A stretch of 64,000 bases of DNA from an uncultured Actinomycetota bacterium (GCA_963743915.1 CAVURN010000001.1:512001-576000), one strand, 5' to 3'; shown: positions 42,793 through 47,782, numbered from the stretch's first letter. The notes: a model not told the origin generated them from the letters alone. Numbers and translations: made by a program.

Positions 42793-44013
42793 ATGCGGCT
42801 GCTGCACACCTCCGACTGGCACCTGGGACGCGGCCTGCACGGTGTCGACCTGCACGTCGCCCAGCAGCACGTGCTCGACCAGATCGTGGCGCTGGTGGCC
42901 AGTCGCGGCGTCGATGCCGTCCTGATCTGCGGTGACGTGTTCGACCGGGCGGTGCCCCCGGTTTCCGCCGTCCAGCTCTGGGACCGGACGCTCCGCGCAC
43001 TGTGCGAACAGGTGCCCGTCGTCGTCATCCCCGGCAACCACGACTCCGCGCCACGGCTGGGGGTCGGCGCCGACCTGTTCCGGAGCGGCGTCCACGTCGT
43101 GGCCGACGTCGACGCGGTGGGGACGCCGGTGACCCTCCACGACGACCACGGTGCCGTGCGCATCTACCCGGTGCCCTTTCTCGACCCCGACGTGGCCAGG
43201 CACGCGTTGGCGGGGGCGAGTGACACCCCGCTCCCGCGTTCGCACGAGGCGGCGATGGCGGCGGCGATGGCCCGCATCCGTTCCGACCATGCCCGACGCT
43301 CTCAGGACGTCCCGGCGCGCATCGTCGTGATGGCGCACGCCTTCGTCGTGGCCGGAGCGGCCGGCGCGCTCCCCGCGGGCGACGGGGCGGGGGGTGGTGA
43401 GCCCCAGCGCAGCGACAGCGAGCGCGACATCCGGGTCGGTGGCGTCGACAGCGTGCCTGTCGACGTGTTCGACGGCATCGACTACGTGGCCCTCGGCCAC
43501 CTGCATGGCGCCCAGCGGGTCGAGGGGCCGCAGCGCAGCGGACGCGTCCGGTACAGCGGATCCCCCCTGCGCTACTCCTTCAGCGAGGCGGCGCAGCACA
43601 AGCAGGTGGCCATGGTCGATCTCTTGGCCGACGGCTCGGTCGAGGTCGAGACCGTCGAGCTCGAGCAACCCCAGGGGATGTCCGCCGTTGCCGGCTCGCT
43701 CGAGCGCTTGCTCACCGACCCCGGGCTCACCGAGGTCGAGCGGTGCTGGGTCCAGGTGACGGTCACCGACCCCGCCCGACCGCCCCAGATGGTCCCCCGC
43801 GTCAAGGAGCGCTTCCCGGACGCGCTGGTGGTGCGGCATGTCCCCGCCACGGGTCCGCTCGCGACCAGCAGCCATGTCGGCGTCCCGGCGTCCCCACTGG
43901 AAGTCGCCGAGTCGTTCGTGCGCTACGTGACCGGTGGCGACATCACCACCGTCGAGCTCGACGTGTTCCGTGACGCGTACGAGCAGGTGCTCGCGTCGGG
44001 CCGTGAGGCCTGA
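42793..44013 (+). CDS. sbcD: Exonuclease SbcCD subunit D
   Basis: HTSDWHLG, GDVFD, GNHD, ALGHLH, YSGSPLRYSFSE. Confidence 0.95.
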   Translation: MRLLHTSDWHLGRGLHGVDLHVAQQHVLDQIVALVASRGVDAVLICGDVFDRAVPPVSAVQLWDRTLRALCEQVPVVVIPGNHDSAPRLGVGADLFRSGVHVVADVDAVGTPVTLHDDHGAVRIYPVPFLDPDVARHALAGASDTPLPRSHEAAMAAAMARIRSDHARRSQDVPARIVVMAHAFVVAGAAGALPAGDGAGGGEPQRSDSERDIRVGGVDSVPVDVFDGIDYVALGHLHGAQRVEGPQRSGRVRYSGSPLRYSFSEAAQHKQVAMVDLLADGSVEVETVELEQPQGMSAVAGSLERLLTDPGLTEVERCWVQVTVTDPARPPQMVPRVKERFPDALVVRHVPATGPLATSSHVGVPASPLEVAESFVRYVTGGDITTVELDVFRDAYEQVLASGREA

Positions 44014-47000
44014 TGCACCTGCACCGCCTCGAGCTCTGCGCGATCGGACCGTTCGCCGACACCTTCACGGTTGACTTCGACGCCCTCGGGGCATCCGGTC
44101 TCTTCCTGCTGGAGGGCCCGACGGGGGCCGGCAAGTCGACGCTGATCGACGCCGTCGTCTTTGCGCTGTACGGGCAGGTGGCGGGCAGTGAGTCGAGTGC
44201 TGAGCGACTTCACTCCGACGTCGCGCCACCTGACCGCACGCCCTACGTCGAGCTGGACTTCAGCACGTCCCAGGGGCTGTACCGCGTCCGTCGGACACCC
44301 AAGCACGAGCGGGCCAAGCGTCGCGGTGACGGCGTCGTCACGGAGAACGCCTCCGCACGGCTCTGGCGGCTGCTGGAGCCCACCGAGCCCGGCTACGCCG
44401 GTGAGCCGGTGGCCACCCGGGTCGAGGAGGTCGGCCGCGAGATCCGCGACGCCGTCGGTCTCAGTCGTGAGCAGCTGACCCAGACGGTCGTCCTTCCGCA
44501 AGGAGAGTTCGCCGCCTTCCTGCGTGCTGAGCCCGAGGGTCGCCGGCGCCTGCTGCAGCGACTGTTCGGCACCGAGGTCTACGACCGCGTGGTCCTCCGG
44601 CTCGAGGAGCAGCGCAAGCAGGCCAGGCATCAGCGGGCGGACGCCGAAGCGGCGGTCCTGGGGGCGGTGCGGGCCTTCACCGGAGCGTCCGGTGTCGAAG
44701 GGGAGGCCGAGACCGTGCTGGTCGACGCGGGGACCGACGAGGGAGCACTGGTCGCGGCCGTCGAGGATCACCTGGGATCGCTCCGGTCCGCACGCGACCA
44801 GGCGCAGGTGCAGCTGGAGGTCGCGGAGAAGGCAGTGGACGCCGCCCGCGAGGAGCTCCGCCAGCGGCAGCGTCACGAAGCGGCCCGCAGCAGGATCCTG
44901 TCGCTGCGTGGGCAGCTGGCTGCGCTGGACGGTCGGCGAGCCGAGCTGGAGACGGACGCGGAGCGGCTGCGTCTGGCCGAGCAGGTGCTTCCACTGCTGC
45001 CGATCCTCGACGGCCTGGTCGACGCCGAGCGTCGGCACGACGAGCTCGACGCCCAGCTGCGAGAAGTTCGCGCGACGCTGCCTGCACCCGTGACGCGGCA
45101 GAGTGAGCTCGATCTCGACGATCCGGCGACGTGGCCACCCGCGGAGCGTCGCCTCCGCGACCTCGTCGCCGAGCTCGGCGCATCCGCTGCCCTCGAGGCG
45201 AGCCTCGAGGCGAGAGCGGTCGAACAGAATGTGCGTCGCGCGCGGCTCGACGACACTCGTCGCCGACACCGGGAAGCCGACGAGGCACTGGTTCTCGCCC
45301 CGGAGCGGATCCAGAGCCTGCAGCACCAGCTGCAGGACGCCGCTGTCCGGCGCGAGCGTCTCGCCGGTGCGGACACTGAGCTCGCAGCCGCCGTCGAGGC
45401 GGTGGCGGCTGCTGAGCGGCTCGCCCGGCTGCGCGAGCAGCTGGAGGTCGCCGGTGCGGCGACCGAGCGGGCGCGACAGCAGGCACAGCGCGCCGCCGAT
45501 GTCGCGCGCGAGCTGCACCGTCGGTTCCTCGACGGCATCGCCGGTCACCTCGCCCAGCAGCTCTCCGACGACGAGCCGTGCCTCGTCTGCGGGTCGTCGG
45601 TGCACCCGAGACCGGCAGCGCGCCGTCCGGGCGATGTCGACCGCGCGACCGTCGACGCCGCGACCGCGGAGGCTGCCGCGGCCGAGCAGGCCTTCCACCA
45701 GGCCGTGGTTCACGCCCGGGCACTCGAGGCGGAGATCGTGGACTGCCGGCGTGACGCGTCCGACGTCTCGGTGACGGACGCCCAGCTGCGGGTACGGAAC
45801 GCCGAGCTCGCAGTCGCGGACCTGGCTCTGGCCGACGCGGACGTCACCCGGCTCCGCGACGAGCTGCGCGCGGCCGAGGCCGGGCTGGAGCAGCATCGCG
45901 CGGCCAGTGGTGCGCTGGGCGTCGAGGTGGGTCGGCTGCAGGCCGAGCTCGATGCCTTCACCGAACAGCTCGAACGCGACCGACGTGCCGTCGCAGCCGC
46001 GTGCTCCGGGCACGGGTCGGTGGCCGAACGGGTCGAGGCGCTGCTGGTGCAGGCCGACCTGCTCGCGGCTGCGTCCGCCGCAGCGCGAGCCGTCGAGACT
46101 GCCGCGACCGATGTGGGCACTCGTCTGCAGCAGTGGCAGGTGGCCGTCGCCTCGTCCCCGTTCCCCGACCGGGACGCGGTGCTGGTCGCCCGCCTCGACG
46201 AGCAGTCGCGAGGCGCGCTCGCCGAGACTCTCGAGGCAGCCCGTCGGAGGCGCACCGAGATCGAGACCGAGCTGGCGCTTCCGGAGCTGGCCGACGTCGA
46301 CGTCGAAGTCGTGACGGATCCAGGCGTCGCCGAGCAGGCACTGATCGACGCCGAGGCCGACCACCAGGCGGCGCAGAAAGAGGTCACCGGGCTCACGCAG
46401 CGCATCGACGACGCCCTGCAGCGAGCGAACGAGGTCACCGACGCCCTCGCCGAGCGACGCCAGGTGCACGGGCGCACCACCCCCGTCGTCCGCATGGCCG
46501 ATCTCGTCAGTGGGATCGGCGCGGACAACGCGCGGTCGATGAGCCTGCCCGCCTTCGTCCTGCGTGAGCGGTTCGCCGAGGTGGTGGCCACCGCCAACGA
46601 GAGGTTGGCGACGATGAGCGACGGTCGTTACGCGCTCGAGCACGCGGAGGACAAGCAGGGCGCGAAGCGGGCCGGGCTCGGCCTCCGGGTCCGCGACGCA
46701 CACACCGAGGAGCCACGCGACCCGCGCAGTCTGTCAGGGGGCGAGACGTTCTACTGCTCGCTGGCGCTCGCCCTGGGGCTGGCCGACGTGGTCACCGCGG
46801 AGGCCGGGGGCGTCGATCTCGGCACCTTGTTCGTCGACGAGGGCTTCGGCTCGCTCGACGCCGACACCCTCGACCACGTGCTGGGGGTGCTGTCCGGTCT
46901 CACCGCCAGTGGAAGGGTGGTCGGCGTCGTCAGCCATGTGCCGGAGCTGAAGGAGCGGATCAGCGAGCGCGTCACCGTCCTGAAGAACCGGGACGGGTCG

Positions 47001-47024: not shown

Positions 47025-47782
47025 GCGCCGGCCGACAGACACCACCCCCACGGCTGCGCAGCAAGGTCTCGGCGCAGGAGCGCGCCCTCATCACCGATGC
47101 CGTGGGTCCGCTCGCCGACGACCGTCTGGTGCGCGCCGTGCGCGACGGCCGGGGGCGTGAGTTCCAGCGCTTGGAGTTCCTCGGCGACTCGGTGCTCGAC
47201 CTGGTGCTCGCCGCCCATCGGTGGGTCGAACCGACATGCCGTGCGTGTCGCGACGCCCCGCAGGTGGCCAGTGACCGTCATCTCGCACAGGTCGCCAGAG
47301 CGGCGGGGCTCGGCGCCTGGCTCGAGTGGGACGCCTCCGACGACCGCATCGCCGATCTTGTCGAGACGTGCGTGGCCGCGACCTGGCTCACCGGTCGCTG
47401 GCCACGAGCGGTGGGGTTCGCGGCGAGAGTCGTGCACCCGTTCGGCGACGCCACTGGCCGGCTGCTCGCGGCCGGGGGACAGAGCCTGCCGCCGGGCCGT
47501 GAGGCGCGCAGGGTGGGGGCGGCCGTCCTCGAGCTCGCGGCCGCCTCGGGGTTGTTCGACGAGCTGGCGCTTGCCGACGAAGGTGAGTTGTCGCGTCGAC
47601 GCGCACTGCTCCATGAGGCCGACCAGGTCGCCGCGCGGGTGAGGCAGCGGCAGCAGGTCGGCGGTGACGTGGAGACCGTGGTCAGTCGGGTCGAGGACGC
47701 GCTCGCGGCGCAGCTCGCCGACGTCGGAGCGGATGCCGCGCTCACCGCTGCGCGACCCTTGCTGGGGTTCGCGGGCGGCTAG
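47021..47782 (+). CDS. Tandem RNase III-domain protein (one intact, one degenerate; no dsRBD)
   Basis: QRLEFLGDSVL..ADLVET; second repeat EARRVGAAVLEL..DEGELSRRRA..SRVED; GTGA overlap with sbcC. Confidence 0.75.
   Translation: MSAGRQTPPPRLRSKVSAQERALITDAVGPLADDRLVRAVRDGRGREFQRLEFLGDSVLDLVLAAHRWVEPTCRACRDAPQVASDRHLAQVARAAGLGAWLEWDASDDRIADLVETCVAATWLTGRWPRAVGFAARVVHPFGDATGRLLAAGGQSLPPGREARRVGAAVLELAAASGLFDELALADEGELSRRRALLHEADQVAARVRQRQQVGGDVETVVSRVEDALAAQLADVGADAALTAARPLLGFAGG

Follow-up and report, generated by a model that had tools for sequence, protein, structure and literature searches.

Bacterial ribonuclease III (RNase III) joins one nuclease domain to a double-stranded RNA-binding domain (dsRBD), as described in the passages of PMC3867540 that deal with it, and acts as a homodimer, as the relevant part of PMC10328071 has it. 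The same passages of PMC3867540 describe a conserved glutamate (E110 in Aquifex, E117 in E. coli) that bridges both catalytic metals and is essential, and present Drosha and Dicer as intramolecular pseudo-dimers with two sites; both sites cut in each enzyme, according to the sections of PMC3867540 and PMC10328071 on them. Asymmetric dimers are on record too: RNase III heterodimers in which only one site functions nick double-stranded RNA (dsRNA), and the KREN–KREPB pairs of the editosome are proposed to cut the mRNA strand only (both in the parts of PMC3867540 on these pairs), while an asymmetric one-site RNase III dimer cuts or nicks one strand in the account given in part of PMC6800513. Plant RNC1 has tandem RNase III domains, both of them silent (PMC3867540, in its passage on that protein). 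Here, we describe R3, a gene in a stretch of 64,000 nucleotides (nt) of DNA from an uncultured Actinomycetota bacterium (GCA_963743915.1 CAVURN010000001.1:512001-576000; this whole stretch is the window, and positions are counted from its first letter), whose product is predicted to hold two RNase III folds in one chain, one with an intact catalytic site and one with a degenerate site. To our knowledge, the textbook classes place only homodimeric RNase III (rnc and Mini-III) in bacteria and tandem intramolecular dimers only among the eukaryotic Drosha and Dicer. A single-chain tandem RNase III from bacteria was not described anywhere in the full-text literature searched, with subscription journals and supplements lying outside that search.

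The R3 product matches the Pfam family PF00636 (Ribonuclease_3) at 39.7 bits against a cut-off of 27 (E 8.7e-10), over two stretches, and a Pfam scan of the protein matched neither a dsRBD nor any other domain. It scores 39 bits on TIGR02191, the model of the canonical rnc equivalog, under the cut-off of 166.25; a canonical rnc lies elsewhere in the same genome (G000:C1:704324-704596, 96.1 bits), and no third PF00636 gene was found in the genome besides these two. Its closest cluster in the ESM Atlas, from Actinomycetota, is labelled simply 'Ribonuclease III' (score 0.92), and a sequence search of solved structures gave as its best match Dicer-like 3, at E 0.066 and over the signature helix only. 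The translation holds FQRLEFLGDSVLD, HRWVEPTCRAC, IADLVETCVAA, RRVGAAVLELAAA and ADEGELSRRRA, among which are all the motifs quoted in the sequence-only reading of the window, the earlier note that singled out this gene.

Because R3 has 124 homologues at E <= 0.001 in a word-indexed search, and because conservation among them is concentrated on catalytic residues, R3 is a real gene. Nearly all of the homologues are 230–285 amino acids (aa) long; in their source records they appear as 'dsRNA-specific ribonuclease', 'hypothetical protein' or 'ribonuclease III domain-containing protein', and those with an organism label come from metagenome-assembled genomes (MAGs) of Actinomycetes or Nanopelagicales. 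A profile search of 1.84 billion cluster representatives returned 2597 matches at E <= 0.001, 74 of them at or below 1e-10 and 27 at or below 1e-30, and about 50 of the 2597 (representatives at 50% clustering, 220–330 aa) match over both halves. To compare residues, we used an alignment of 34 close homologues (A1) and another of 42 sequences that includes distant members, at 22–54% identity to R3 (A2).

These alignments bring out a marked asymmetry between the two halves. The RNase III tetrad, which we take to be E40, D44, D107 and E110 in Aquifex numbering, reads E52, D56, D112 and E115 in domain 1, where it is complete in 34/34 sequences of A1 and 41/42 of A2. The same four residues are invariant in A1 together with H66, C73, D85 and H139 and, in the second half, G166, L170, E171, E187, L190 and S191; in A2, the invariant positions are G55, D56, D112 and G166, with E52 and E115 present in 41 of the 42. 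At the corresponding positions of domain 2 (163, 167, 222 and 225, set by the Pfam and hhalign register), a full tetrad occurs in 0/34 and 0/42. R3 itself has lost three of the four acids there (R163, A167 and S222) and keeps E225 alone, and domain 2 of distant members usually reads LAxxGD ... ADxxQ. Judged by these aligned residues, the second catalytic site is degenerate throughout the family, by differing routes. The sequence-only reading had assigned all four acids to domain 1, denied domain 2 the first acid pair, seen no dsRBD and proposed a check for a separate canonical rnc; each of these points agrees with what we found, with the refinement that the first residue of the second pair is gone as well.

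Domain 2 keeps G166 and the motif ADEGELS (185–191), and the latter, with E187, L190 and S191 invariant in A1, is better kept than the former catalytic positions, which suggests that this part of domain 2 may have a role in a valley shared by the two halves. Domain 1 has a further peculiarity of its own: where canonical RNase III domains have the DEGxLS loop, it has a cluster of histidines and cysteines, of which H66, C73 and H139 occur in 34/34 close relatives and C76 in 33/34. The cluster is not kept in the wider family, where CC variants are found, and it probably forms a structural metal site confined to close relatives of R3.

Profile matches give domain 2 weaker support as an RNase III domain than its predicted fold does. 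Isolated domain 2 reaches PF00636 at E 0.051 for R3 and at 2.3e-4 to 6.1e-4 for four relatives. Positions 150–214 and 164–246 of the A1 profile match genes in two other genomes (G030 and G040) at about 4e-5. We rejected these matches as extra tandem members, as they sit on canonical rnc genes beside fpg/mutM-like open reading frames (ORFs); lying on rnc, they support the homology of domain 2 to RNase III.

The fold itself was predicted for R3 and for a distant relative. AlphaFold2, given A1, returned an all-helical model of R3 with a mean predicted local distance difference test score (pLDDT) of 95.2 and a predicted template-modelling score (pTM) of 0.93; 237 of the 253 residues scored 90 or more in pLDDT. 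Foldseek against the PDB placed Drosha chains at the top (9asm_A, E 6.6e-6), followed by plant and animal Dicers, in alignments of about 300 columns with TMq 0.54–0.70, and single-domain bacterial RNase III chains came lower (E 0.07–0.3). When we compared the model with 48,161 representative chains by VIA-align, in which helical proteins may reach Z ~13 by chance, it matched Drosha 6v5b_A at Z 17.6 (root-mean-square deviation (rmsd) 3.6, 243 residues aligned, model 1–253), Dicer 7yym_A at Z 16.0 and Giardia Dicer 2ffl_A at Z 14.1; RNase III matches took ranks 1–31, and the next, unrelated rows stood at Z ~5. Taken separately, domain 1 (model 16–141) matched E. coli RNase III 7r97_B at Z 12.9 (rmsd 3.0, 125 aligned), and domain 2 (model 145–251) matched Mini-III 4oun_A at Z 10.2 (rmsd 3.2, 102 aligned), FN1578 2gsl_A at Z 9.1, R3B2 6zdw at Z 8.8 and the RECC1 chain 9dei_A of a trypanosome editing complex at Z 8.3. 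A relative only 33% identical to R3 (P0141, 276 aa) gave a similar AlphaFold2 model (pLDDT 95.7, pTM 0.93), with 269 of its 276 residues aligned to residues 871–1247 of Drosha 6v5b_A at Z 23.8 and rmsd 2.9, scores of Z 21.1 and 19.9 against Dicer and Giardia Dicer, and a domain 2 (150–276) that matches C. jejuni RNase III at Z 12.4 and rmsd 1.7. The proposal of the sequence-only reading, an RNase III fold in the C-terminal half that pairs with domain 1 in an intramolecular dimer, is well supported as a prediction by AlphaFold2, Foldseek and VIA-align taken together.

R3 shares features with several described enzymes and differs from each. Like Drosha and Dicer, it is predicted to pair two RNase III folds within one chain (Z 17.6 to 23.8 over 243–269 residues, counting P0141), but it is bacterial, has 253 aa, has no PAZ, helicase, dsRBD or CED, and keeps one intact site where they have two. 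With canonical rnc it shares the ERLEFLGD-like and ADxxEA-like motifs of domain 1 and a valley made from two RNase III domains; canonical rnc, however, has one domain plus a dsRBD and works as a homodimer, whereas the model of R3 is all-helical, with two RNase III folds and no dsRBD. Mini-III (B. subtilis MrnC) likewise has an RNase III domain without a dsRBD, but it pairs identical ~140-aa subunits symmetrically and has two active sites, and R3, as one chain with one site, falls outside that class. The KREN1-3/KREPB pairs and engineered E. coli RNase III heterodimers are asymmetric dimers with one functional site, as R3 is predicted to be; they are separate polypeptides or artificial constructs, in large complexes, whereas the halves of R3 are fused in one small protein. 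Plant chloroplast RNC1 offers tandem domains in one chain with degenerate sites, but both of its domains are silent, whereas domain 1 of R3 has all the residues of one site. Neither the fold nor the chemistry of RNase III is new; the single-chain architecture appears new for bacteria, with asymmetry built in.

On this basis, we think it probable, with real room for doubt, that R3 is a second, non-canonical RNase III paralogue, an asymmetric one-site pseudo-dimer without a dsRBD that nicks structured RNA. The two RNase III domains of the 253-residue chain would pack like the subunits of bacterial RNase III, or like RIIIDa and RIIIDb of Drosha and Dicer, and the pseudo-dimer would form the usual valley for an A-form duplex. 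A two-metal centre would be present in domain 1 only (E52, D56, D112 and E115), and domain 2 would serve as a conserved pseudo-nuclease that completes the RNA-binding valley. Because only the domain 1 centre would bind two metals, each binding event would end in a single phosphodiester cut on one strand, a nick rather than a staggered double cut. By analogy with RNase III heterodimers, as far as PMC3867540 treats them, the proposal in the sequence-only reading that one such site would nick one strand is sound. Because there is no dsRBD, targets would have to be chosen by the nuclease domains themselves or through a partner, as in Mini-III. In the lineage of the window, R3 would be co-transcribed with sbcDC and probably translationally coupled to it, with no dependence on the SbcCD complex.

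Several observations weigh against this account. All five scores of isolated domain 2 on PF00636 fall under the 27-bit cut-off, and an hhalign comparison of the domain 1 and domain 2 profiles is weak (E 0.039, probability 1.3); it sets ADLVET and VSRVED in register, and is too weak on its own. Of the 34 close relatives, 32 retain E225 of domain 2, and the site of this residue may have a residual role, such as metal or RNA binding. The structures of R3 and P0141 are both predictions, and R3 may or may not stay monomeric; a two-copy complex prediction with A1 scored 0.00 against a mark of 0.42, which says nothing either way on a homodimer. The substrate could be something other than duplex RNA. 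On the supporting side, a metatranscriptome contig of 235 nt that matches 47493-47727 without mismatch is a weak hint that R3 is transcribed, and it could be carried-over DNA. At least half of the sampled words of the stretch were found in 16 runs, mostly sediment metagenomes. In four RNA-labelled runs, searched as contigs, nearly all matching pieces were of 30–50 nt and came from the signature region or from sbcC of other organisms, and no contig in these four bridged the sbcC–R3 or R3–acyltransferase junction.

How the two-domain architecture arose was addressed with a quick IQ-TREE domain tree (130 rows, 117 columns, unrooted), with support given only by the Shimodaira–Hasegawa-like approximate likelihood ratio test (SH-aLRT). 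Its rows comprise the first and second domains of 42 family members, 24 single-domain proteins similar to rnc in size and 22 domains of 11 other tandem proteins; two of these 11 are named by their source, one from a chytrid and one from a dictyostelid, both eukaryotes. A branch with SH-aLRT 99 has every one of the 42 second domains on the same side, 39 of the 42 first domains group with support 90, and the groupings of subfamilies largely match between the two halves. Because all 42 second domains share one side of that branch, the tree points to a single origin of the architecture, and the pattern fits a single old duplication or fusion after which the halves would have co-evolved. This 130-row tree does not place the R3 family relative to eukaryotic domains, and in it domain 2 showed no specific tie to the second domains of the long tandem proteins sampled. 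Three metagenome-only proteins (P0170, 391 aa; P0174, 327 aa; P0169, 1016 aa) have two well-scoring RNase III domains each and cluster in the tree with eukaryote-like tandem proteins, apart from the R3 family.

Across the class, the R3 family is rare and patchy. The two-domain gene is present in 17 of the 19 other genomes of the window's GTDB family (f1); the two without an R3 match are G012 (88% complete, 370 contigs) and G017 (96% complete). It was found in none of a set that took one genome from each of 41 further families in this class. When the sample was widened to 401 genomes of the class, with a strong two-domain match defined as E <= 1e-50, we found such matches in 5 of the 381 genomes outside f1: G181 (f57), three of the five f58 genomes (G217, G247 and G345) and one of the 17 f20 genomes (G169). 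Weaker, more divergent members could be hidden among 267 further matches in the wider sample. These negative tallies rest partly on ten unpublished genomes (G025, G033, G042, G048, G050, G054, G060, G270, G308 and G372), each of which has a match of canonical rnc type only. Scanning a single genome for each species turned up 24 loci whose relatives are near full length; one is labelled Bifidobacteriaceae and the others Actinomycetes, Actinomycetota or Nanopelagicales.

A member of the wider family occurs in Candidatus Blastococcus massiliensis AP3 (L027 6659-7831, plus strand), with a CC motif in place of CxxC. It is overlapped by a long ORF on the opposite strand with a high third-position guanine-plus-cytosine content (GC3), and automatic gene calls may miss it. 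As a cultured or named carrier, this organism could serve for genetics.

In the window, R3 is the third of four genes in a tight run on one strand (Table 1). The sbcC product matches TIGR00618 at E 1.4e-87 and 294.8 bits, under the cut-off of 478.5. Downstream, R3 ends in TAG (47780-47782), and the likely GTG start of the acyltransferase follows 10 nt later; the acyltransferase ORF is open from 47664, and homologue matches start near the GTG at 47793. Further downstream, the minus strand carries genes for an MFS transporter and a TetR regulator. Guanine-plus-cytosine (GC) content is ~70–73% across the window, with no compositional break at the locus. A promoter and terminator scan of 41600-49000 gave 0 promoter-like sites and 1 terminator-like site against 0.7 expected, and is uninformative at 70% GC.

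Table 1. Coordinates of R3, its parts and neighbouring genes (window positions unless a locus or contig is named)
Feature	Position	Strand	Remarks
AMP-binding acyl/acetoacetyl-CoA synthetase-like (acs-like) gene	39673-41658	-	Upstream flank
252-aa ORF between acs-like gene and sbcD	41946-42704	+	No Pfam family at E <= 0.001
sbcD (Mre11-like nuclease subunit)	42793..44013	+	406 aa; opens the gene run; TIGR00619 148.9 bits, cut-off 77.65; Pfam Metallophos, SbcD_C
sbcC (Rad50-like ATPase subunit)	44013..47024	+	1003 aa; Pfam AAA_23 and SbcC_Walker_B above cut-offs
GTGA overlap	47021..47024	+	R3 GTG start (47021-47023) over sbcC TGA stop (47022-47024); read from the sequence
R3, predicted single-chain tandem RNase III protein	47021..47782	+	253 aa, without dsRBD
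RNase III domain 1, predicted active	47066..47443	+	Residues ~16-141; best Pfam stretch 49-125
Domain 1 catalytic codons	E52 47174-47176; D56 47186-47188; D112 47354-47356; E115 47363-47365	+	
His/Cys cluster, candidate structural metal (Zn) site	47216..47437	+	H66 47216-47218; C73 47237-47239; C76 47246-47248; H139 47435-47437
RNase III domain 2, degenerate	47447..47773	+	Residues ~143-251; catalytic positions R163, A167, S222, E225
PlsC-type acyltransferase	47793..48647	+	Pfam Acyltransferase E 2.8e-27; likely GTG start
SSB-family paralogue then ABC-F ATPase	L021 7687-8304; L024 7786-8319; L025 7216-7695; window's genome C5:33758-31642		

The position of R3 against sbcC recurs in part of the family. 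At 16 of 25 family loci (L003-L018), sbcC ends where R3 begins, with the first aligned R3 residue (6–8) within ~15 nt of the end of the SbcC match; where the contig permits, the acs-like gene and sbcD lie upstream and the acyltransferase downstream. The 16 loci are not independent observations, because they are close kin (50–58% R3 identity, with at least two from one MAG) that share the whole neighbourhood from the acs-like gene to the acyltransferase. Counted by genome, 15 of the 20 in f1, the window's among them, have SbcD ~3 kb upstream of R3, with both on one contig and one strand. Five genomes carry R3 without an SbcD match: G014 and G018 (sister genus g2; 88% and 90% complete, G018 in 3 contigs), G402 and G401 (loci L019 and L020) and G011, which is 84% complete and has R3 on a contig of 3.2 kb; G012 has SbcD and no R3 match, and G017 matches neither. 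At L019, the acs-like gene and the acyltransferase still stand beside R3 and sbcDC is missing. Within the window's family, the acyltransferase adjoins R3 more faithfully than sbcDC does, even at L019 and L020, where sbcDC is absent. In G004, of the window's genus and 69% complete, the sbcD...R3 region occurs on both C3 and C15, and C3 has two SbcD matches (3710-4888 and 9238-10416), which reflect either a duplication or an assembly or binning artefact.

Other clades place R3 elsewhere. At L021-L026 and in G345 (~40% identity), the order is an alpha/beta-hydrolase (minus strand), a MaoC-like dehydratase, R3, an SSB-family gene and an ABC-F ATPase; at L021, the last 4 nt of R3 are shared with the ssb ORF. 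The genome of L021 (G403) carries SbcD on another contig, and the window's genome has its own ssb-like and ABC-F pair on contig C5, away from R3. In G181, and partly in G247 and G217, R3 lies between an NlpC/P60 gene and a short-chain dehydrogenase (SDR), and in G169 between carD and a type III polyketide synthase (PKS).

The likeliest alternative to a stand-alone RNA nickase is that R3 is a dedicated accessory of SbcCD, active at DNA ends or palindromes: it would nick hairpins of RNA, or the RNA of RNA:DNA hybrids, and thereby let SbcCD process them, in repair or defence. The 4-nt GTGA overlap with sbcC, the sbcD-sbcC-R3 order in 16/25 loci and 15/20 family genomes, the joint absence of both genes from G017 (96% complete) and the second clade, in which R3 abuts a DNA-metabolism gene of the SSB family, all speak for it. 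Against it stand the five genomes that have R3 with no SbcD match, the retention of the flanks at L019 without sbcDC, the separate contig of SbcD in G403, the members that lie beside NlpC-P60/SDR or CarD/type III PKS genes and the close kinship of the 16 syntenic loci. No PADLOC 2.0 defence model matched R3 at E <= 0.01 (SbcC gave generic SMC-like matches only, such as LmuB at 1.1e-20), and the literature naming both offered no such link between RNase III and SbcCD among the matches listed. We regard this explanation as unlikely. The coupling of sbcDC and R3 is real as an operon arrangement, confined to three genera, and it is neither universal nor required; the adjacency looks like a lineage habit rather than a proven partnership. 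The sequence-only reading had expected homologues to be linked to sbcCD, which stands for 15 of the 20 f1 genomes and fails in part of the family, and its further proposal of a functional coupling to SbcCD in repair or defence is not borne out by the genomes without SbcD, the other neighbours of distant members and the lack of a PADLOC match.

R3 closely adjoins two different DNA-metabolism genes, sbcC and ssb, so that a DNA-related role survives as a minority reading. One form of it, to which we give only a slender chance, is that R3 is a prokaryotic nickase acting on RNA paired with DNA in RNA:DNA hybrids or on transcripts folded at DNA ends. It would have been recruited twice, independently, with translational coupling to sbcC in one lineage and to an ssb paralogue in another, and would clear RNA for SbcCD or SSB.

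R3 might instead mature ribosomal RNA (rRNA) or transfer RNA (tRNA) in the manner of Mini-III, with a ribosomal protein or some other partner directing a single specific cut to a precursor helix. As a narrower version of the nickase reading that we favour, this proposal does not contradict it. The lack of a dsRBD, the resemblance of domain 2 to 4oun_A (Z 10.2) and the absence from the genome of any other PF00636 gene besides rnc are in keeping with it, but the patchy spread (5/381 genomes outside f1) argues against a core role in ribosome maturation, and no rRNA or ribosomal-protein genes stand beside R3 in the contexts examined; we consider it improbable. Equally doubtful is a non-catalytic binder of duplex RNA or RNA chaperone like plant RNC1, for which a tandem RNase III without dsRBD and with one clearly degenerate domain would have a precedent (PMC3867540, in its passage on RNC1), since the acids of domain 1 are kept in 34/34 close and 41/42 distant members across ~25–55% identity, which points to selection for catalysis and is hard to explain otherwise.

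We envision that R3, as an asymmetric one-site RNase III, could inform work on this enzyme class in several ways. A tie to SbcCD would matter more, yet the present evidence is insufficient to carry it. If R3 did act as a nickase on RNA:DNA hybrids, it would put an RNase III at work in DNA repair and would be the first natural single-chain Drosha/Dicer-like core in bacteria. If the prediction of a one-site pseudo-dimer is true, R3 would be a natural nickase of dsRNA (or of hybrids) and a very small model of how an RNase III pseudo-dimer chooses a strand without a dsRBD, as well as a point of comparison for the evolution of the asymmetric editosome nucleases and of the Dicer core. For the family itself, the predicted architecture would mean that the single-chain solution to RNase III arose in bacteria too, in a minimal form of ~250 residues with one live and one dead site.

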